64,000 bases of DNA from a virus: IMG/VR virus record IMGVR_UViG_3300031758_000004, positions 1-64,000 of that record; one strand, 5' to 3'. The stretch's first letter is position 1, and each line of letters opens with the position of its first letter. The notes below the pieces were generated by a model. It made no database searches, was not told the origin of the DNA, and saw only the letters and a list, made by a program, of their open reading frames with translations. Made by a program: the position numbers and the translations under genes. Shown one piece after another: positions 33,203 through 45,147 of the stretch.

Positions 33203-34006
33203 ATGAAAATTAAAAGATATAACGATATTGTAGTTGACTCAATGGTTGAACATTTTATACAATCACTTGAAATGGTAACAGAATCAGATGAAACTGAAAA
33301 TGAAGATTATAAAAGTGTACTAAGAAAAATAGTAAGTGATTTAAATCTTAATTTTAGATTAATTGGGACATTTGGATTTGGAATTGGTGCTTTTATGCCA
33401 ATTATACTTAATATAATGAAAAATGCAAGTTTATCACAAGTTGAAATAACAAAAGAAACAGTAGTTTTATTAGCATTAACATCACTTTCAATTATTTATT
33501 TAGAAGAAAAGAAAACTAAATCACCTAAAGAAGAGGTTGAAATGACAAAGGATTCGAAATCTATGCTTGAGGAATTGAGAATGAGAGGTATTGGTGATGG
33601 AATTGTTAAAAAAGTTATTAAATGTTTGAAATCAGTAACAGGTGTTTTTAAAATATTTGGTAAACACGTTGGTGCTGTTATTGGTGGTATTATAGATATG
33701 TTTGCTTATGGTGCTATGTTAGCTCCTATTTGTGTTTCATTAGCTGATATAATCAATAAATATAAACTTAACTTAGACACAATGCCTGAAAACTTTCTAA
33801 TGTTAGCTAGTGGTGTTGCGACTATTGTTGCTAAACACACAATAGCTCATGTTATTAAAAAATTAAAAAGTAAATTAAAACTTCCAAAGAAAATTGAAGA
33901 TAAAATAGAAGATGAAGTGGAAGAAATGGAAGAACCGACTATACAAAAGACACTAGGAAATAGTCGTTTAGGATCTGAAATAATAAATGATAATAAAAAT
34001 AAGTAA
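33203..34006 (+). CDS. Hypothetical protein with hydrophobic segments
   Basis: 267 aa; TAATATATA at 33190; MKIKRYND start. Confidence 0.65.
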   Translation: MKIKRYNDIVVDSMVEHFIQSLEMVTESDETENEDYKSVLRKIVSDLNLNFRLIGTFGFGIGAFMPIILNIMKNASLSQVEITKETVVLLALTSLSIIYLEEKKTKSPKEEVEMTKDSKSMLEELRMRGIGDGIVKKVIKCLKSVTGVFKIFGKHVGAVIGGIIDMFAYGAMLAPICVSLADIINKYKLNLDTMPENFLMLASGVATIVAKHTIAHVIKKLKSKLKLPKKIEDKIEDEVEEMEEPTIQKTLGNSRLGSEIINDNKNK

Positions 34007-34011
34007 AAATG

Positions 34012-34038
34012 AAAATCCTTAATATAAGGATTTTTTTT
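34012..34038 (+). terminator. Intrinsic terminator
   Basis: aaaatcctta-ata-taaggattttttt. Confidence 0.75.
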
Positions 34039-34095
34039 ATTTAAACAAAGATTAGTTTATTTATATAATTCATGATTAAAAAATAATTATTATAA

Positions 34096-34824
34096 ATGAC
34101 TACTCCACAATTAGAGAAAGTATATTTTAATTACATTTTAAAGAACAAGAAATATTTTGAGATAGTAAAGGCTTATTTTTTTAGAAATTCGGAAATTCAA
34201 TTTGTTTACGGCGTAATTAGAGAATATATGTTGAAAGGTTCGGATGTTGAAATCCCAACTCCGAGACAAATTTTAGACATGGTTAACCTTCAAGATAAAG
34301 AAGGTATGATAACCAAAGAGATTTTAAAATCAATTCTTCAAGTTAATCTTGATGAATATGATGAGAAAAACTTTATAGAACCAAACTTTAATGGTTGGGT
34401 TTTAGCAAATCGATTAAAAACTGGTACAGTAGATATCATCGATGAAACTAGAAATCTAGATTCAATATCTGACTTTGATAAAGCAGTCGAAGCTGCTAAT
34501 AGAATTAAAGGTATTGTTGATGAGATGTCATCAACTAGATTTGTACAAGATGATGATATGGGTTCAGATTTTGATGAGGCTGAAAATCACGTACAAGATT
34601 CCTCAAAATTTAAAGTTAAATGTGGATTCGAAACCATTGACCATATGCTAGGTGGTGGATGGGATATTTCTACATTAAATGTAATAATGGCTGAAACTAA
34701 CAACGGAAAATGTTGTTCTTTTGATACGGTGATAAAAGTTAGAGATAAGAATAATGGTAATGTTTCAAATGTTGATTTTGGAACATTCTTTGCCAAAGTT
34801 AGTCAGTGGGGTGTTGATATTTAA
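34096..34824 (+). CDS. dnaB: gp41/DnaB helicase N-terminal fragment fused to split-intein N-part
   Basis: CGFETIDHMLGGG..LNVIMAETNNGK, then CCSFDTVIKVRD (intein block A). Confidence 0.88.
   Translation: MTTPQLEKVYFNYILKNKKYFEIVKAYFFRNSEIQFVYGVIREYMLKGSDVEIPTPRQILDMVNLQDKEGMITKEILKSILQVNLDEYDEKNFIEPNFNGWVLANRLKTGTVDIIDETRNLDSISDFDKAVEAANRIKGIVDEMSSTRFVQDDDMGSDFDEAENHVQDSSKFKVKCGFETIDHMLGGGWDISTLNVIMAETNNGKCCSFDTVIKVRDKNNGNVSNVDFGTFFAKVSQWGVDI
34711..34821 (+). other. Split intein IntN, 37 aa (atypically short)
   Basis: Cys1 immediately after the Walker A GK; ends at stop 34822-24. Confidence 0.8.
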
Positions 34825-34847
34825 TATATAAAAATAAAATATTAAGT

Positions 34848-36029
34848 ATGAATGCAGATGCTAAAAAAAGATATAAGGATATAGAATTTCCTTACACTTG
34901 TCCTATTAGTAATAGAATATTTGAGAGTTCACAGGGTTTATCTTGTTATGTTACAAAAACATTGAAAATGAATCATGAAGAGTATTATGATACTTATATA
35001 AATCACAGAGACAATTCTTGTTTCTTTTGTGGTAGTAAAGGTAAGTTTATTTCTATATCAAAGGGATATAGAAATTTATGTGAGAGTCAAGAGTGTGTTA
35101 AAAAATCATTTAACTCTCATAGTGTAGAGGGATTCATGTATAGAAATATGCTTTCTAGAGAAGAAGCTGAAGTTCAATTTAAAATAGAAAATGAAAGGCA
35201 GTTGAAAGAAAGGATTGAATCACAAAATAAATTAAGAAAAATAGATAAAAATTGGGACAAAAAAAGAAGTAGAAACTGTAAGTATTTTTGGATTGAGAAG
35301 GGATATTCTGAAAAGAATGCTATTTTAAAAGCAAAAGAGGTTATGGATGAAATTCATTTAAAAACCTCTATTAAATTAAAATCAAATCCTGAAAAATATG
35401 CACATAAATATCCAACGAAAAAGGAGTACTATTTAAAAAGAGGTTTTAGTGAAGAGGAGGCTATTGAAAAGATATCTGAAATACAAAATAGATTTTCGTT
35501 ACAAAAATGTATTGAAAAATATGGCAAAGAAGATGGTAAAATAGTTTTTGAAGAGAGACAGAGGAAATGGATCGAAACAATAGATTCAAAAACAGAAGAG
35601 GAGAAAATAGAAATTAATAGAAAAAAATTATTTAATAATGGTGGATATTCTAAAATTTCACAAAATCTTTTCTGGAGTATTTATGAGAACTTTAAAAATA
35701 ACAAAATTAATTTTGAAGAGTTAAACTCAGAAACCATTAGATATGATAAAATAAATAAAAGACATTATAGATTTGATTATGTTGATCATAGTAAAAAGAA
35801 ATGTATTGAATTTAATGGTGATTATTGGCACTGTAACCCTGATAAGTATAATGAGAGCTTTATACATCCTATATTGAAAGTAACATCAAAAGAAATTTGG
35901 AAAAAAGATATTGATAAAATCAATTGGTTTAGAAAAAGGGGTTATGAAGTTTTTATTGTTTGGGAATCTGAATATAGAAAAAACCCGAAACAAACCGTAG
36001 AAAAATGTATAAAATTTATTAATGAATAA
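34848..36029 (+). mobile_element. Free-standing Vsr-like homing endonuclease
   Basis: C-terminal CIEFNGDYWHCNP..VFIVWESE; sits between the intein halves. Confidence 0.8.
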
Positions 36030-36471
36030 TTTAGATAATTTTGAAGTAATAGAAGCAGATAGTCTATTAGAAGGTAAGTATGATAGACCGCTTTATGATA
36101 AATTCATCGAAGCATATGAGGTGGATAATTTTGAGGTATTGACCCCAAATGGATGGGTTAATATAGAGGGTATTGGTAAAACAATAAAATTTGAAGAATT
36201 TGAAATTATTACCTCCGGTGGTAAAAATTTAATATGCGCTGACAAACATCTATTATATAGATGTGATAATATGGACTTTTCATCAAAAAAATGTGATTTG
36301 ACAGAGATATATTGTGAGAAATTAGAATTGGGTAATTTTATAATGACAAAAGATGGACCGGAGCAAATTATGAATATATCAAAAACCGGAAAAAATTCAC
36401 ATATGTATGATTTACAACTATCAGAGGGTTCTAATAAACAGTATTATATAAATGATATTCTTAGTCACAAT
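36022..36471 (+). other. Split intein IntC, 150 aa, containing blocks B, F and G
   Basis: Ends His-Asn (36466-71); Ser+1 at 36472. Confidence 0.8.
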
Positions 36472-37191
36472 TCTCTTTGGATGCAAAATTTTGCCGTTAA
36501 ATCAGCAAATATGGGACACAATGTTCTTTATATCACTCTTGAAATGAGTGAGCGTAAAGTTATGAAGAGATTAGGTGCTATGAGGTTAAAAATTCCTATT
36601 AATGATTATGATAATCAATCTAAGGATGTTGAATTGATTAAATCTAAGATAGATGCTCTCAAACGAATAGAAGGTGGTGTTGATTTATTTGAAAATAAAG
36701 TTGGTAAAATTATAACTAAATTCTGGGCAGCCGGAACAGCAACTGTTAATGACTTTGATAATTATATTCAAAGATTAAAAGAAAAGAGAGGTATAAAAAT
36801 CGACCTAATTATAGTTGATTATATTACATTGATTGCTGCTAATAAAGGATCTAATGCTGATAATCTTTATACTAAGGGTAAACACTTAGCAGAGGGATTA
36901 AGAGCAATGGGAGCAAAATATATGTGTCCTGTTATAACTGGTGTGCAGGTTGCTAAAGATGCTTGGAACTCATCCGATATTACATTAGAAGCCGTACCTG
37001 AGTCAAAAGCAATAGCAGAGACTGCTGACACCTTCTTTGCTATCATCCGTACAGAAGAAATGAAAAGACAAAACTTATATAGATTTAAACTACTTAAACA
37101 AAGAGATGGTGATTTCTTAAAATCACAGATTAGATTGAGTTTAAATCCAGTTTATTTAACACTAGAAAACGATCAGTTTTTAGATCAATAA
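36022..37191 (+). CDS. dnaB: Split-intein C-part fused to gp41/DnaB helicase C-terminal fragment
   Basis: VLTPNGW, LICADKH (block B), MYDLQL..ILSHN|SLWMQ; then YITLEMSE, IIVDYI, VITGVQ, ESKAIAETAD. Confidence 0.88.
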   Translation: MNNLDNFEVIEADSLLEGKYDRPLYDKFIEAYEVDNFEVLTPNGWVNIEGIGKTIKFEEFEIITSGGKNLICADKHLLYRCDNMDFSSKKCDLTEIYCEKLELGNFIMTKDGPEQIMNISKTGKNSHMYDLQLSEGSNKQYYINDILSHNSLWMQNFAVKSANMGHNVLYITLEMSERKVMKRLGAMRLKIPINDYDNQSKDVELIKSKIDALKRIEGGVDLFENKVGKIITKFWAAGTATVNDFDNYIQRLKEKRGIKIDLIIVDYITLIAANKGSNADNLYTKGKHLAEGLRAMGAKYMCPVITGVQVAKDAWNSSDITLEAVPESKAIAETADTFFAIIRTEEMKRQNLYRFKLLKQRDGDFLKSQIRLSLNPVYLTLENDQFLDQ

Positions 37192-37245
37192 GAAACAAAG
37201 ATAATAAAAAATTATATAAAACAATACAAAAAATAAAAAAAATCT

Positions 37246-38196
37246 ATGGCTAAAAAAGTTAGAGATGATGAAGAAGATTTCGATGATGAATTAGATAATG
37301 AAGTCGGTGATGAAATTATTGATGATTTAGACGATGAAGAAGATTTTGATGATGAATCAAAATCAGATTCTGATCTGAATTTAGACGATGATGACAATTT
37401 AGATATTTTGATTGAAATTGACGATGATGATTTAAATTTGATGGATGATGAGAAAAAAAGTTCAGAGGATGAAGATGATATAGTTCTTTCTAAACATAAA
37501 ATCGAAGGTAAACATTCATTAAAATATGATTCTATTTTTAAGGGTAAAAAAGAAGATCCTTTAAGTGAAGATGATATGGATGGATTTGCTTTTTATCATA
37601 AAGAAAGCATCGAAGTTGATAAATCATCAAACTACTATTTTGAATCTATTGATAATGAAAATTATATTAGAACAAAATTGGTTAAAGAAAGAGTTTATGC
37701 CGTTTTAACGGAACATACATCTCTTAATTTCATGAATAATCGAAGAAAACCTTCAAGATCAGATTTTAATCAATATTATACCTTATTGAAAAGAAATTTA
37801 GAAAGTGAAAGTTTTACTAATATAGAATTGTTTAATGAGTTAGCAGTTTATTTTTCAGATAATCTATTTAATATGTTTAAATTATTAGATAATAAATGGC
37901 GTAATTTGATAATAAAAGAATTACAAGAACATATTGGTAAAAACGCAAATTCTAAACAAGTTATGAATAGAAATATTTATGTTGGAACCGAAATAGAATT
38001 CATGTGGCATGATGAGTTTGGTGATGATAAATTAATTACTGGAGTTGTTTTAGAAACTAACTACGATGATTCAATGTTTAGAGTTGATTCTTATGAAAAT
38101 ATCTATGATATTCATATCAGTATTATAACAAAAATCTTAAATAACACAAAATTTAAGTATAATTTAAATAAACTTAACAACATTGATTTTTTATAA
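37246..38196 (+). CDS. Hypothetical protein with acidic N-terminus
   Basis: 316 aa. Confidence 0.7.
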   Translation: MAKKVRDDEEDFDDELDNEVGDEIIDDLDDEEDFDDESKSDSDLNLDDDDNLDILIEIDDDDLNLMDDEKKSSEDEDDIVLSKHKIEGKHSLKYDSIFKGKKEDPLSEDDMDGFAFYHKESIEVDKSSNYYFESIDNENYIRTKLVKERVYAVLTEHTSLNFMNNRRKPSRSDFNQYYTLLKRNLESESFTNIELFNELAVYFSDNLFNMFKLLDNKWRNLIIKELQEHIGKNANSKQVMNRNIYVGTEIEFMWHDEFGDDKLITGVVLETNYDDSMFRVDSYENIYDIHISIITKILNNTKFKYNLNKLNNIDFL

Positions 38197-38283: not shown

Positions 38284-39906
38284 ATGAGCATGATAAAAGT
38301 CACAAAAAGAAATGGTAAGAAAGAAACCGTTAATTTCAATAAGATTGTTGATCGTATAACACAACAAACTTATGGATTAGATCAAAAGTGGATAGCACCG
38401 TTTGAGATCGCACAAAAAGTTATTGAAGGTATTACACCAGATATTAAAACTTCTGTGTTAGATCAATTGGCAATGGAAACTGCGGCTTCTCTTACAACAA
38501 AACACCCAGATTACTCAGTTTTAGCAGCAAGAATCGCTATTACTTCTTTACATAAAGAAACTAAAAAGAGCTTTTCAGAAACAGTTAAAGATTTATATAA
38601 CTATGTAGATCCAATGACAGAGAAACATTCTCCAATTGTTTCTTTGGATTTTTACAACATTGTTAAAAAACACGCTGATGATTTAGATTCAGCTATTGTA
38701 CACTCAAGAGATCATAACTTTGATTACTTTGGTTACAAAACTTTAGAGAAATCTTACTTATTAAAAATTAATGGTAAAGTTGCTGAAAGACCTCAGTATA
38801 TGTATATGAGAACAGCACTTCAAATTTGGGGTGAAAACTTAGAAAAAGTAATTAAAACTTATAACGAATTATCAGAAGGTTATTATACTCACGCAACACC
38901 AACATTATTCAACTCTGGAACAGGTAGACCACAATTATCTTCTTGTTTCTTATTAGATACTGAATCAGATTCTATTGATGGTATTTTTAACACATTAAAA
39001 GAAGCTGCTCAAATCTCTAAAAACGCGGGTGGTATTGGTATCTCTTTTAACAAAGTAAGAGCTAAAGGAACTTATATTGCTGGTACAAACGGTACTTCAA
39101 ATGGTATTATTCCTTTCTTAAAAATCTATAATGAGACAGCGAGAGCGGTAGACCAAGGTGGTGGTAAACGTAAAGGATCAATTGCTATTTATATGGAACC
39201 ATGGCACGCTGATATTATGGACTTCTTAGATTTAAGAAAGAACCAAGGTAAAGATGAAATTAGAGCTCGTGACCTTTTCTTAGCAATGTGGATGAACGAC
39301 TTGTTTATGGAAAGAGTTGAGTTAGATGCTGATTGGTCATTAATGTGTCCTCACGAATGTACTGGATTGAATGAAACTTATGGTGAAGAATTTAACAAAC
39401 TTTATACTTCTTATGAAGCGGCTGGAAAAGCTAAAAGAGTTGTTAAAGCAAGAGAAGTTTGGAATAAAATATTAGAATCTCAAATTGAAACTGGTACACC
39501 ATACTTATTATACAAAGATTCAATCAATGAGAAATCAAATCAATCAAATATTGGAATGATACACTCATCTAATCTATGTTTAGATGGAGATACTTTAGTT
39601 AAGTGTAGAGTTGAAGGTGTAGAGAAAGAATTTGATATGGTCACAATAGATCTTATGTTTAAGAATGGTAAGAAAATAGAAGTTCTTTCTAGAGACTTAG
39701 AAACAGGAATTGATGAGTGGTGTTTGGTTGAAAACTCTGGTATAACCAATCATAATGCGGAAACTATCAAAGTAACAGATGAAAGTGGGAATTACATAAT
39801 CTGTACAGAGGATCATCAAGTTTGGACTCAAAATAGAGGATATGTTAGAGCTGGTGATTTAGAAGAAAATGATATTTTATTATTAAATGAAAAAGAACTT
39901 GTTTAA
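38284..39906 (+). CDS. nrdA: Class Ia ribonucleotide reductase alpha, N-fragment plus IntN
   Basis: ATP cone VTKRNG, ATPTLFNSG, LSSCFL, QGGGKRKG, SSNL|CLDGDT. Confidence 0.92.
   Translation: MSMIKVTKRNGKKETVNFNKIVDRITQQTYGLDQKWIAPFEIAQKVIEGITPDIKTSVLDQLAMETAASLTTKHPDYSVLAARIAITSLHKETKKSFSETVKDLYNYVDPMTEKHSPIVSLDFYNIVKKHADDLDSAIVHSRDHNFDYFGYKTLEKSYLLKINGKVAERPQYMYMRTALQIWGENLEKVIKTYNELSEGYYTHATPTLFNSGTGRPQLSSCFLLDTESDSIDGIFNTLKEAAQISKNAGGIGISFNKVRAKGTYIAGTNGTSNGIIPFLKIYNETARAVDQGGGKRKGSIAIYMEPWHADIMDFLDLRKNQGKDEIRARDLFLAMWMNDLFMERVELDADWSLMCPHECTGLNETYGEEFNKLYTSYEAAGKAKRVVKAREVWNKILESQIETGTPYLLYKDSINEKSNQSNIGMIHSSNLCLDGDTLVKCRVEGVEKEFDMVTIDLMFKNGKKIEVLSRDLETGIDEWCLVENSGITNHNAETIKVTDESGNYIICTEDHQVWTQNRGYVRAGDLEENDILLLNEKELV
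39577..39903 (+). other. Split intein IntN, 109 aa
   Basis: CLDGDTLV (block A), ICTEDHQV (block B), YVRAGDLEEND. Confidence 0.88.
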
Positions 39907-40786
39907 TTATGAGGATTTTATAACAGATAACATAGATAATACATCCTTTATCTATGTTTATCTGGATCCTAGAAAATCAGGAGACTATAAATATGGTGAA
40001 TATGAATTTAATCATGAACCTTTTTATGTTGGTGCTTCTAGTGGTAAAACTATACATGATCGAAAAGTTCGACATTTACAATACGCGAAAAACGATAAGG
40101 ATATAACAAATAATAATTACAAAAAGAATATAATAAAGAGTATATTATCAGATAAATTAGAACCAATTATATTGAAATATATTGATGGTATGAGTATATC
40201 AGATGCCTTTTTTAAGGAAAAAGATATGATACTAATCATTGGTAATAGATATGATAAGTCAGGACCTCTAGTTAATATATCAAAAGGAGGAGATGGTGGT
40301 GATAACTTTACTAATAATCCAAGAAAAGAGGAGATAAGAGAAAAGCATAGAAGAAATGCTTTAGGATCGAATAATAATATGTATGGTCTTCCTTTAGAAG
40401 AATATCCATCACATAAAGCAAAGTTGAGAGGAGAACATTGGAATATGGGTAGAACCGCGTCAATATCAACAAGAGAAAAGCTATCCAAACAAAGAAGTGG
40501 ATCTGGTAATAGTAGAGCTAAAAAAACTTTACTTTTTGATAAAGACTTCAATATAATTAGAGAATTTGATTATTGTTTTGATGTATCTAATTATATTAAC
40601 TCATCAAATAGGTCGGTTTCCAAGACCGCAAGTACAAATTCAAAAGAGGAAATGTATCCATATCATACAACAAAAGGTTATTATATAATCTATAAGGATG
40701 ATTGGGAAAATAAATTTAAGAATAAAGAAAATGAAATTAGAGAATATCTAAAGACATTTAAGAAAAATAAAAATCAATTTTCATAA
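39887..40786 (+). mobile_element. Free-standing GIY-YIG-like homing endonuclease
   Basis: FIYVYLDPR..FYVG..R, LVNISKGGDGG, NNMYG. Confidence 0.8.
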
Positions 40787-40803
40787 AAAATAAAAAAAAT
40801 ATT

Positions 40804-40899
40804 ATGATCAAAATCGAAAAAGTAAAAAATAGACCAGTTTATGACATTACTGTGAATAAAAATCACAACTTTTATGCTAATAATATATTAGTACATAAC
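40804..40899 (+). other. Split intein IntC, 32 aa
   Basis: Blocks F and G ending His-Asn; Cys+1 at 40900. Confidence 0.88.
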
Positions 40900-42165
40900 T
40901 GTGCTGAAATAGTTGAAGCGACAGGCGTTACTAAAACGCAAAAAGCTATTTTAGAAAATAAAGAGTTATTAGAGAAATTAGGGTTAGGTGAATTCTGGGG
41001 TCAAGAAGAAGTAAATGAAACAGCAGTTTGTAACTTAGCTTCTTTAGCACTTCCTAAGTTTATCAATAAGAATAAAACTTATAATTTTAATAAACTTTAT
41101 GATATTGCTTATGATGCGATTGTTAACTTAAATAATGTTATTGATGTTAACTTTTATCCATCACCATCAGCTAAATTTTCTAACTTATGTCATAGACCAG
41201 TTGGTTTAGGTGTTCAAGGATTAGCAGATGTTTTCTTTCAATTAGGATTACCATATGAATCTGAAGAGGCTAAACAATTAAATAAAGATATTTTTGAAAC
41301 TATCTATTACGCTTCAATTAAAGCTTCTTGTGATTTAGCTAAAGTACAAGGCACTTACGCAACTTATGAAGGTTCACCTATTTCACAAGGTAAATTCCAA
41401 TTTGATTTATGGGGAACTAAACCTAGTAAAAGATGGGATTGGGATAAATTAAGAGAAGAAGTTAAGAAGTATGGTGTTAGAAACTCTTTAACAACTTGTA
41501 TCATGCCAACAGCATCAACAGCTTCTATCTTAGGTAATGAAGCATCTTGTGAAGCTCAAACTTCAAATATGTACACAAGAAGTGTTCTTTCAGGAACTTT
41601 CATTATGGTAAATAAATATTTAGTTAAAGAATTAGTTAAGTTAGGATTATGGAATGAAAATTTAAGAAAGAAAATTATTGCTGAGAATGGTTCGGTTCAA
41701 AATGTACCTGAAGTACCAACTAACTTGAAAGAAATCTTTAAAACTGTTTATGAGATTAAACAAAGAGATGTTATCGAGATGGCTGCTGATAGAGGAGCGT
41801 TTATTGACCAAACTCAATCAATGAATATTTTTATGGATTCTCCAAACTTTGCTAAGTTGACAGCGATGCACTTCTATGGATGGGGTAGAAGAAACTTAAT
41901 GACCAATGAAAATGGTGAAGTTATTATCCCACAAGGAGAAAATATTCAAGTTATTTACGATTCAGAAGGTAAAGCAAGATGTTATAAAGATAAGAGATAC
42001 ACATTAAAAACTGGTATTTATTATTTAAGAAATAAATCAGCGGCAGACGCAGTTAAATTCACTGTACAACAAGATACGGCTAAGAAAACTGTTGAAGAAC
42101 AAATGGCTGAAATCTCGTGTAGCTTAGATTCAGATCCTGGTGAATGCATGGCATGCGGCTCGTGA
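40804..42165 (+). CDS. nrdA: IntC plus ribonucleotide reductase alpha C-fragment
   Basis: MIKIEK..VYDITV..NFYANNILVHN|CAEI; VCNLAS, GLGVQG, MPTASTA, DQTQSMN, terminal CMACGS. Confidence 0.92.
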   Translation: MIKIEKVKNRPVYDITVNKNHNFYANNILVHNCAEIVEATGVTKTQKAILENKELLEKLGLGEFWGQEEVNETAVCNLASLALPKFINKNKTYNFNKLYDIAYDAIVNLNNVIDVNFYPSPSAKFSNLCHRPVGLGVQGLADVFFQLGLPYESEEAKQLNKDIFETIYYASIKASCDLAKVQGTYATYEGSPISQGKFQFDLWGTKPSKRWDWDKLREEVKKYGVRNSLTTCIMPTASTASILGNEASCEAQTSNMYTRSVLSGTFIMVNKYLVKELVKLGLWNENLRKKIIAENGSVQNVPEVPTNLKEIFKTVYEIKQRDVIEMAADRGAFIDQTQSMNIFMDSPNFAKLTAMHFYGWGRRNLMTNENGEVIIPQGENIQVIYDSEGKARCYKDKRYTLKTGIYYLRNKSAADAVKFTVQQDTAKKTVEEQMAEISCSLDSDPGECMACGS

Positions 42166-43014: not shown

Positions 43015-43485
43015 ATGGCTAGATTTAACGCAACATTACCTAAACAAAAGACCTTAACTAATAACTTAGCAGGAGGTCAAGCTTATTCACAATCTGATGA
43101 ATTAGCATTAGTATCATTTTTACTAACATCATTTGTTAGTGATCAATTTTATAGATCATCTGATCAATCTTTGAATGAGTTGAAAAAACTTTTAATCAAA
43201 GTTGATCCTGTTTTTGCCGCTAAAGCAGCTATTTATGCCAGAGATAAGTTTGGTATGAGATCTGTTGCACATGCTTTAGCAGGTGAGTTAGCAAAGTATT
43301 TATCTGGAAAAGATTTTGCTAAGAATTTCTATGATAAAATAGTTGTTAGACCTGATGATATGATGGAGATATTAGCTTATTATAATACAAATTGTGGGAC
43401 TAAAATTCCTAACTCTATTAAAAAGGGATTCGCAAAATCATTTGATAGATTTGATGGTTATCAGTTGTCTAAATGGAAAAAATGA
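43015..43485 (+). CDS. Ro60/Rsr (TROVE) protein, N-terminal fragment
   Basis: NNLAGGQAY, FYRS, AAIYARDKFGMRS, VVRPDD, SIKKGFA..FDGYQLSK. Confidence 0.85.
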   Translation: MARFNATLPKQKTLTNNLAGGQAYSQSDELALVSFLLTSFVSDQFYRSSDQSLNELKKLLIKVDPVFAAKAAIYARDKFGMRSVAHALAGELAKYLSGKDFAKNFYDKIVVRPDDMMEILAYYNTNCGTKIPNSIKKGFAKSFDRFDGYQLSKWKK

Positions 43486-43520
43486 TATTTGAAAAATAAT
43501 ATATACTTAAAAAGTATATT

Positions 43521-44195
43521 ATGAGTTTTTTTATTTCAAAAGAAGATTTGGAGTATTTATATTTTGTGGAAAATTTATCTTACTCTAAAATTGAAAAAAA
43601 ATTAAACTTAAATCGAGGTGTTATATATCACTGGTTTAAAAAATATGAAATTAAACCAAGAAACTACTCAGATGCTGGTAAAGGTAGAAAATTTACAGAT
43701 GAACATAAGAAAAAAATTTCATTTTCAAATTCCAAGCCACATACCGAAGAGAGAAAAAAAAATATATCAAATTCACACTTAGGTAAAAATTTAACAGATG
43801 AGCATAAAGATAAAATAAGAAGTAAATTTATAGGACTTAGACCTGGATTTAAACACCCTATGTGGAAAGGAGGTAGATCCACATTTAGAAATAGATTACA
43901 ACAATCATCTCTATATAAGGAATGGAGAAAATCTATATATGATCGTGACTTATATAAATGTCAAATTTGTAATAGTGGTGGTAAATTAAATTCACATCAT
44001 ATTATAAAGTTCTCAAAGATTGTAGAGGATTACAATCTTTTAAAATACGAAGATTACATCATGTGTAATTTTCTTTGGGATATAGATAATGGAATTACAT
44101 TATGTGAAAAATGTCACCATAGTATAAAAGGTATAGAGGAAAAATTTGAAGAAAAATTTAAAAGTATAATTTATGAAAAAAAGAAAAATGTATAA
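43521..44195 (+). mobile_element. Free-standing HNH endonuclease inserted in the Ro60 gene
   Basis: N-terminal HTH, NUMOD3-like repeats, CQIC..SHHI..NGITLCEKCH; own TAATATATA at 43497. Confidence 0.85.
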
Positions 44196-45147
44196 ATTAG
44201 TTGACGTTGTTAACTTAGTACACCCAGTGCCAACAGAGAAAAACTCTGAAGCACTTAACTTATTAATCAATGATAAGTTAAAAAACACTGATACTTGGGA
44301 AGCTAAGTTATCAGCAGCTGGTCAATCAGCTGAGAACTCAGAAGATTTGGCACAATTAAAGGCTGATGCTTGGACAGAGTTAATCTCTACAAGAAAATTG
44401 GGTTACTTTGCTCTTTTAAGAAACTTGAGAAACATTGTCTCTCAAGCTCCACAATCTGTTACTGCGGCTTGTGAAATGTTGGTTGATGAAAAATTAATCA
44501 AAAAGAGTAGAGTTTTACCATTCAGATTCTCTACAGCTTATGAAGAAATCTCTAAGCTTCCTTCAAACAAGGAAACAAGACAAGTGTTAGTTGCTATCAA
44601 CAACGCTCTTGAAGTTTCAGTACAAAATGTACCAAAGTTTGAAGGTGAAACATTACTTGTAATGGACGTATCTGGATCTATGAGTGGTAGACCATCAGAA
44701 ATTGCGAGTTTATTCGGAGCAATTATTGCGAAAGCAAATAACTGTGACGTTATGACTTTCTCTACAAGTGCTAATTATAAGACTTACAATCCATTGGATT
44801 CTGTAATGACAATAAGAAGCTCTTTTAGATACTCTGGTGGTGGTACTAACTTTAAGTCTATCTTCCAAAATGCTAATAAGGCTTATGATAACATCGTTAT
44901 TTTAAGTGATATGCAAGGTTGGATTGGTTATACATCACCAAGTGCTGAGTTTAACCAATATAAGAAAAGATTTGGGGCTAATCCTTCAGTATTCTCTTGG
45001 GATCTTGCTGGGTATGGTACTTTACAACTACCTGAAAATGGTGTTTACTGTTTGGCTGGTTTTTCTGATAAAGTTTTTGATGTAATTGAATTACTAAAAA
45101 CTGACAGAAATGCGTTAGTAAACGAAATTAAATCCATTGAGATTTAA
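44173..45147 (+). CDS. Ro60/Rsr (TROVE plus vWA) protein, C-terminal fragment
   Basis: KLVDVVNLVHP, TWE..LS, ALLRNLRN, RVLPFRF, MIDAS DVSGSM, GGTNF, LSDMQ. The start may be ATG 44188, overlapping the HNH stop. Confidence 0.85.
   Translation: MKKRKMYKLVDVVNLVHPVPTEKNSEALNLLINDKLKNTDTWEAKLSAAGQSAENSEDLAQLKADAWTELISTRKLGYFALLRNLRNIVSQAPQSVTAACEMLVDEKLIKKSRVLPFRFSTAYEEISKLPSNKETRQVLVAINNALEVSVQNVPKFEGETLLVMDVSGSMSGRPSEIASLFGAIIAKANNCDVMTFSTSANYKTYNPLDSVMTIRSSFRYSGGGTNFKSIFQNANKAYDNIVILSDMQGWIGYTSPSAEFNQYKKRFGANPSVFSWDLAGYGTLQLPENGVYCLAGFSDKVFDVIELLKTDRNALVNEIKSIEI

Follow-up and report, generated by a model that had tools for sequence, protein, structure and literature searches.

The stretch of DNA analysed here, 64,000 nucleotides long (the window; positions 1 to 64,000 of the IMG/VR virus record IMGVR_UViG_3300031758_000004), comes from a huge lake phage and carries a replicative helicase gene of the T4 gp41/DnaB type that is fractured into an N gene and a C gene, with a free-standing endonuclease gene between them. 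We conclude with high confidence that the helicase is rejoined by protein trans-splicing of an atypically split intein, whose N-terminal piece (IntN) is short and whose C-terminal piece (IntC) is long. The helicase is a new host protein for such an intein, and the intein itself is a distinct subfamily of a known, rare kind. A preliminary description of the window had claimed the fracture, the division of the intein into 37 and 150 residues and the extent of each part, and all of these agree with the open reading frame (ORF) list and with the raw sequence (Table 1).

Intein features are divided between the two genes in a way that leaves only the first motif on the N side. The N gene ends its helicase part with ...IMAETNNGK and continues for 37 residues starting with Cys-Cys-Ser-Phe-Asp-Thr, the Cys1 codon (34711-34713) lying immediately 3' of the GK codons. 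These residues hold block A only: residues 1-27 comprise Cys1 and block A, a pair of short strands and the beginning of a helix, and they are followed by a 10-residue tail (AKVSQWGVDI). The gene is closed by TAA at 34822, a second in-frame TAA follows seven codons on at 34843, and the endonuclease occupies another frame, which together rule out an alternative genetic code or read-through. The other motifs are found at the beginning of the C gene, namely block B (CADKH, 36235-36249), block F (MYDLQL) and block G (ILSHN, 36466-36471), after which the helicase resumes with SLWMQ. The initial assignment of blocks A, B and F, the terminal His-Asn and Ser+1 is thus borne out at each position. The head of IntC (about residues 1-24) is acidic and probably helical. 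Net charge averages +2.2 for IntN (0 in the window) and -13.6 for IntC (-12 in the window, of which -8 falls within the first 40 residues), and a basic IntN paired with an acidic IntC would fit the electrostatic capture known from other split inteins.

Table 1. Coordinates of the fractured helicase locus in the window
Feature	Position	Strand	Description
N gene	34096-34824	+	242 aa: 205 helicase residues and the 37-residue IntN
N-extein	34096-34710	+	T4 gp41/DnaB-type helicase residues 1-205, ending in the first half of Walker A (...AETNNGK)
IntN	34711-34824	+	37 residues and TAA; Cys1 and block A
Spacer after IntN stop	34822-34847	+	TATATAAAAATAAA (T4-late-promoter-like) and a possible hairpin holding the endonuclease ATG
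Homing-endonuclease gene	34848-36029	+	Free-standing, 393 aa; frame differs from that of the N gene; own ATG and stop
Overlap of endonuclease stop and C-gene ATG	36022-36029	+	8 nt (ATGAATAA)
C gene	36022-37191	+	389 aa
IntC	36022-36471	+	150 residues: acidic head, then strands with blocks B, F and G
C-extein	36472-37191	+	Ser+1 completes Walker A (GK-S); RecA-like ATPase domain; 239 aa and stop

Alleles without an intein identify the host gene and fix the limits of the insert. A blastn search against phage records found both flanks adjacent to each other in two complete genomes of uncultured huge phages, LR745206 (635 kb) and LR756502 (642 kb), whose 444-residue helicases read, uninterrupted, ...AETNGGK-SLWMQ... 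and ...AETNNGK-SLWMQ.... The window N-extein is 83-84% identical to residues 1-205, and the window C-extein 81-84% identical to residues 206-444, of the uninterrupted genes (L001, 3001-4335; L002, 2998-4332). About 96 further intein-less clusters encode helicases of 441-446 residues, every one reading AETNNGKSLWMQN. Because intein-less homologues read GK-SLWMQ at the insertion point, the boundaries of the insert are exact and its removal restores the Walker A motif (GK-S); the AETNNGK-SLW junction predicted for the spliced protein in the preliminary description matches the AETN(G/N)GK-SLWMQ of these uninterrupted homologues. The insertion point is the known bacterial DnaB-b site (PMC4760082). 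The assignment of the host is supported on both sides of the break, with the N-extein matching the DnaB-like helicases of PHROG 19 (E 9e-11) and the C-extein matching Pfam DnaB_C (E 3e-15), and the model of a contiguous allele described below matches T4 gp41 (8gao_A, E 2e-21). Each of the complete relatives has a single DnaB_C gene, which is the orthologue of the window helicase, and the window record, a 136-kb fragment, has the helicase gene in one copy. Since this is the sole DnaB-type gene in two complete relatives, the helicase would be required for replication.

The split state is not peculiar to the window. About 60 distinct related loci were fetched from IMG/VR and JGI metagenomes, and the N-gene ORF stops 32-47 codons past GK, almost always with TAA, in every one of the 61 loci that include the N-extein end; recurrence of the layout in 61 independent loci excludes chance. 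The IntC-helicase form is represented by 408 protein clusters (at 90% identity), whose proteins have 384-393 aa and whose contigs reach 770 kb. IntN has exactly 37 residues in 34 of 46 unique sequences, and among these Cys1 is present in 34 of 34 and Phe27 in 32 of 34, with length and hydrophobic pattern kept, while overall identity to the window copy ranges from 15 to 46%. IntC, at 71-80% identity, has an invariant block B Ala-Asp-x-His, block F Met and Asp, terminal His-Asn and Ser+1. Ratios of nonsynonymous to synonymous substitution rates (dN/dS; NG86, pairs with dS up to 1.5) are 0.19 for IntC, 0.22 for the N-extein, 0.11 for the C-extein and ~0.8 for IntN, and IntC is therefore under purifying selection.

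These data can be set against the idea that the endonuclease broke the intein and left behind a dead gene, the helicase being a decaying pseudogene, with the host DnaB or a different phage gene taking over its function. The incompleteness of the window record would leave space for such a replacement, but there are zero frameshifts or premature stops in the 61 loci, and a 37-codon frame would be open by chance with a frequency of only ~4% at 27% G+C, as calculated from base composition. In addition, the exteins and IntC are constrained (dN/dS 0.11-0.22) in a gene that recurs in the same form across the 408 clusters, and no other DnaB-type gene accompanies it in the complete relatives. We consider decay of the gene very improbable.

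The endonuclease is present in most loci (31-75% identical), and about ten loci without it stay split, with spacers of 36-108 nt between the two genes (L006, L008, L013, L027, L053 and others); fragments of the endonuclease are kept in L037 and L041. The persistence of the split in about ten loci after loss of the endonuclease rules out a recent accident. Four states of the gene coexist: intein-less (about 96 clusters), contiguous (five), split with the endonuclease and split without it. The endonuclease-less alleles also bear on whether the two ORFs could be joined before or during translation, with the 1.3-kb insert being a group I intron that houses an endonuclease, or a segment bypassed by the ribosome. 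Vsr-like endonucleases do occur in group I introns (PMC2677866), and the N and C genes share a frame in the window, but this relation of frames is not conserved across loci, and the endonuclease-less alleles still end their N gene in TAA however short the spacer. Nor is there room for an intron, as the endonuclease ORF fills the insert, leaving 23 nt upstream and 0 downstream. Rfam at permissive thresholds (E up to 1) returned no match, and thus no group I intron core, in 33500-38000 or in five related loci, and the flanks carry intein motifs that an intron would not need. Joining at the level of RNA or translation is, in our estimate, the least probable of the explanations considered here.

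Contiguous alleles show what the cassette added. A search with the junction region of the contiguous precursor P0091 yielded five contiguous precursors of 612-619 aa, each in a separate cluster (P0091 and P0391-P0394), and their existence indicates that the two intein halves make one HINT domain. They are joined at differing points. In P0091, IntN residue 27 is linked straight to ...EIIEADS of the IntC head, and P0391 and P0392 keep the IntN tail (...SKGDYN) and have lost the head of IntC. Split loci L006 and L046 have an IntN identical to the N part of P0392, which marks P0392 as a secondary re-fusion. Taken together, these joins define the insert as a 10-codon tail, a stop, a spacer, the endonuclease, a start and about six head codons, and the differences among them imply that the region tolerates changes of length. 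P0091 was also folded with AlphaFold2 (AF2) from a 64-row alignment; N genes were left out of it, having been misplaced by MAFFT against the contiguous precursor. The predicted local distance difference test score (pLDDT) is 80-94 through most of the intein (residues 205-374), where the model has strands at 211-216 and 222-226, a helix at 227-241, a low-confidence turn at 247-249 and further strands to 357. A Foldseek search with the whole 612-residue model matched helicases alone.

The sequence between the halves has a recurrent organization. The motif TAATATATAAA(A)TAAA lies directly past the IntN stop in nearly all endonuclease-bearing loci; TATATAAA(A)TAAA is similar to the late promoter of T4, and 8-36 nt separate it from the endonuclease ATG. 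The window hairpin that holds this ATG has a z of -1.6 and is not significant alone. Promoter-like or hairpin elements upstream of fracturing endonucleases were reported earlier by Dassa 2009 (PMC2677866). At the other end of the cassette, the endonuclease-less loci keep about 16 of the last endonuclease codons before the IntC ATG, which suggests that the initiation region of the C gene lies there. The -8 overlap of the endonuclease and the C gene recurs in at least 10 loci, an arrangement that would couple their translation. As a separate observation, extra DNA lies between the endonuclease stop and the IntC start in L003, L023, L034 (~600 nt), L046 (1420 nt) and L010, L035 (260-320 nt), which suggests further insertions into the same cassette.

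The relationship of IntC to other inteins is detectable by sequence. A phmmer search of all PDB sequences placed the C piece of Cat first (6dsl_B, E 1e-4, or 1.8e-6 with a 10-sequence profile), followed by the gp41-1 intein (6qaz, 3e-4) and, marginally, by VidaL (E 0.17). Alignment to known atypically split inteins, which the preliminary description had proposed as a check, thus makes the Cat IntC the closest solved sequence. Residue 13 of the Cat IntC aligns with residue 33 here, placing the break at the same topological position (S2, PMC13014065), and the present IntC has about 20 extra N-terminal residues relative to that of Cat. On a larger scale, a HMMER scan of 1.84 billion representatives recovered at least 599 IntC relatives, 211 of them at E below 1e-10. 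Among the best 150 relatives, the match starts within the first 45 residues in 125, as expected of a long IntC heading a C-extein, and the remaining 25 are contiguous inteins in which ...GK precedes the first Cys. Pfam assigned 56 of 92 IntC-first proteins to Terminase_6N, 25 to DnaB_C, 3 to AAA_2 and 2 to ABC_tran, and the residues after His-Asn continue a Walker A motif (T/S-T..., T-L-I-A-K-K-L-A-E, S-T-L-L...). Positions invariant across the 92 relatives are a Thr, the block B Ala and His, the block F Met and Asp, and the His-Asn at the end; the +1 residue among family representatives is Thr in 64 and Ser in 53, and Pfam Intein_splicing matches 46 of the 92. Resolution is poor in a tree of 132 IntC domains, and the approximately unbiased (AU) test fails to reject a single helicase clade (p 0.53), and for these reasons we make no claim of repeated hopping between terminases and helicases. 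Given its DnaB_C/gp41 host, the intein is of the same family as the TerL inteins, yet it is not a TerL intein. The helicase-borne IntC also has a set of conserved cysteines (36235-36315, residues 72-98; ICAD.H...RCDN...KKCD...YC), with C72, C81 and C91 invariant and C98 nearly so, of which only the first is common to terminase-borne relatives; these cysteines might form a metal site or a disulphide regulating splicing.

Comparison with described systems helps to place the helicase intein. Known natural atypically split inteins with an IntN of 15-37 aa are PolB16, VidaL, AceL-TerL and GOS-TerL (PMC13014065, PMC10189870, PMC11766414). Like AceL-TerL, GOS-TerL and Cat (PDB 6dsl), the helicase intein combines a short IntN with block A alone (25-37 aa) with a long IntC holding blocks B, F and G, is split at S2 around the first helix (PMC13014065), is inserted past the GK of a phage ATPase Walker A and originates from phage metagenomes, with sequence homology detectable at the level given above (Cat IntC, E 1.8e-6). 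GOS-TerL likewise has a 37-aa IntN, which tolerates trimming to 27 aa (PMC11766414). Unlike these inteins, it resides in a gp41/DnaB-type helicase instead of a large terminase, uses Cys1/Ser+1 as nucleophiles (Cys/Cys in AceL and Cat, Ser/Cys in GOS), has Ala-Asp-x-His in place of Ser-Asp-x-His in block B, and has an IntC of 150 aa, with its extra acidic and probably helical head, where theirs are 104-115 aa. The preliminary description had announced a new natural atypically split intein; the atypical split stands, but the kind was already known from these relatives, and the window copy is one of the 408 clusters. VidaL and PolB16 OarG likewise pair a natural short IntN with a long IntC, although they are split earlier, at S1 after strand 2, with 15-16 aa (PMC13014065, PMC10189870). 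Full-text searches of the literature turned up no description of a helicase-borne atypically split intein, and the papers and supplements on VidaL and Cat might mention one.

The gene arrangement itself has precedents. The fractured genes of Dassa 2009 (gp41-1 to gp41-9, NrdJ-1, IMPDH-1 and terminase) also have an N part, a free-standing endonuclease and a C part on one strand, and they share with our locus the Vsr-like endonuclease, the upstream promoter-like or hairpin element, the occurrence of endonuclease-less alleles and a setting in phage replication genes. The gp41 fractures of that study differ in being typical (IntN 88-105 aa, IntC 33-54 aa) and at other helicase sites (PMC2677866). 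An unusual break point was noted there for the terminase locus only, whose IntC of 122 residues holds all N motifs but the first (PMC2677866). Bacterial DnaB-b and archaeal MCM-a inteins occupy the same Walker A insertion point in a replicative helicase (Novikova et al. 2016, PMC4760082), but they are contiguous and often have an in-frame endonuclease domain, whereas the present intein is spread over two genes.

On this basis we propose the following route to a functional helicase. An intein would sit in the Walker A loop between Lys and Ser, at the bacterial DnaB-b site, and a cassette with a free-standing Vsr-like endonuclease would have entered the intein gene at S2, past two strands and the start of the first helix, instead of the usual site behind block B. 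The upstream ORF apparently owes its final 10 codons and stop to the cassette, which also seems to bring the spacer resembling a late promoter and the region where the downstream ORF starts. Two polypeptides would then be made, N-extein-IntN (242 aa) and IntC-C-extein (389 aa), and the 27-residue core of IntN would complete the HINT fold by docking into IntC, which is strongly acidic and holds nearly all of that fold. Class 1 splicing would proceed through an N-S acyl shift at Cys1, attack by Ser+1 and cyclisation of Asn150, giving a 444-residue helicase of about 50 kDa with an intact GKS P-loop and releasing the intein pieces. The endonuclease would spread the cassette into alleles that lack it. 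Detection of the product by mass spectrometry of an NNGKSLW junction peptide had been suggested earlier; the GK-S junction is a trypsin site, and a tryptic digest would destroy that peptide. The Glu-C junction peptide predicted for the spliced helicase is TNNGKSLWMQNFAVK....

A helicase working as two chains, with the intein halves acting as a non-covalent clamp and no splicing, is another way to read the same genes. The phage does tolerate an intein-less fracture elsewhere, in its TROVE gene, which is interrupted by an HNH ORF 6 kb downstream, and the IntN sequence is weakly constrained. However, the helicase is broken between the Lys and Ser of Walker A, where formation of the P-loop needs a continuous chain, and conservation extends beyond any interface to all residues of the chemistry (Cys1, block B His, block F Asp, the terminal His-Asn and Ser+1). 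The published relatives AceL-TerL, GOS-TerL and Cat do splice (PMC11766414), and we regard the clamp as improbable.

Trans-splicing is very probably the mechanism, and several points weigh against it or qualify it. The anatomy of the locus, the exact empty-site alleles, conservation and purifying selection, the family relationship and the endonuclease fold are observed directly, and trans-splicing, mobility of the cassette and translational coupling are inferred. The P0091 model puts the split point (between Phe231 and Glu232) inside the first helix and not cleanly after it. Most inteins have Thr at the first position of the block B Thr-x-x-His motif; this IntC has Ala (CADKH), invariant across the 92 relatives, and the His is present and likewise invariant. 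The window IntC falls below the Pfam intein cut-off (E 0.05), and an IntN profile found no match in the PDB at E up to 10, although 37 residues are too short for this to be informative. IntN evolves fast (dN/dS ~0.8, 15-46% identity) and is constrained in few positions. Finally, as a 136-kb fragment, the window record leaves room for a second helicase elsewhere in the phage.

In the endonuclease, a Cys/His-rich N-terminus and a helical middle precede a nuclease domain of the Vsr-like (EDxHD) type, which spans residues 265-393 (35640-36026). Its AF2 model has a pLDDT of 87, and Foldseek ranked Vsr first (1vsr, 1cw0). In VIA-align the best match was Vsr 1cw0_A (Z 11.7 over 113 residues, 2.8 A), followed by 1vsr (10.9), 3hrl (10.7) and the catalytic domain of I-Bth0305I, 3r3p_A (10.1), with all matches falling on residues 265-393. 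A profile search of the PDB also had Vsr as its top three matches, weakly (E ~0.15), with D, FWH and VLIVWE aligned. There are 968 homologues, some of them named Vsr by JGI; in a set of 28, D310, E321, D325 and H328 are invariant, and Pfam assigned 18 to MTES_1575 and 2 to DUF559. The Vsr-fold matches make the original label of a Vsr-like gene correct, and they place the protein with the endonuclease family predicted by Dassa et al. The fold of the C-terminal 130 residues and the aligned Asp, Phe-Trp-His and Val-Leu-Ile-Val-Trp-Glu are common to I-Bth0305I (3r3p) and E. coli Vsr (1cw0). The former resides in a recA group I intron and the latter is a repair enzyme; the present protein differs from both in being free-standing inside an intein gene and in having its Cys/His-rich N-terminal part. 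Candidate targets are the contiguous intein allele and the intein-less P-loop site. Residues 1-264 (34848-35640), which no PDB match covers, have invariant C18, H53, C58, C61, C78 and C83 and repeated helical G(Y/F)SEEEA modules, and this N-terminal two thirds probably serves to recognise DNA. The endonuclease gene is interrupted in its turn in one related locus (L042, 2010-2550), by about 600 nt of G+C-richer, structured-looking sequence, in which Rfam found no family.

Two neighbouring genes in the window are also fractured. The gene for the large subunit of class I ribonucleotide reductase (38284-42165) is fractured by a split intein of the typical form: about 105 intein residues (CLDGDTLV...) close its N gene, its C gene opens with a 32-residue IntC (...ILVHN, followed by Cys), and a GIY-YIG endonuclease gene (39887-40786) lies between the halves. 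With the reductase intein beside the helicase intein, a single phage makes use of both forms of split intein, typical and atypical, within 6 kb. Further along, an HNH endonuclease gene divides a Ro60/TROVE-vWA gene (43015-45147) into two ORFs, at a break without intein motifs.

Split inteins with a short IntN are in demand for protein semisynthesis, since their small piece is accessible to chemical synthesis, and few natural ones have been characterised (PolB16, VidaL, AceL-TerL and GOS-TerL). The helicase intein adds a Cys1/Ser+1 member with a predicted functional core of 27 residues, and it comes with hundreds of natural variants that could be mined for speed, orthogonality or promiscuity. 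More broadly, the observations can be read together as a lineage of inteins specialised on the Walker A GK-S/T site, mostly atypically split, with helicase production that depends on the cassette and with a promiscuous IntN library; we put this forward tentatively, at somewhat less than an even chance. Its best representatives sit in terminases, gp41-type helicases, ClpB-like AAA proteins and ABC ATPases. In the helicase branch the cassette seems to provide the upstream stop and the downstream start, and production of the helicase would then depend on its remnants even after the endonuclease is lost. The hypervariability of IntN (15-46%) against the conservation of IntC (71-80%) would imply broad cross-reactivity and, if true, the locus would offer a natural library of short, interchangeable splicing tags that leave a Ser scar instead of Cys. 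Empty-site, contiguous and split alleles, with and without the endonuclease, give a rare population snapshot of one essential gene, and their coexistence, with some contiguous alleles being secondary re-fusions, makes the Dassa-Pietrokovski model of split-intein origin testable at a non-canonical break point.

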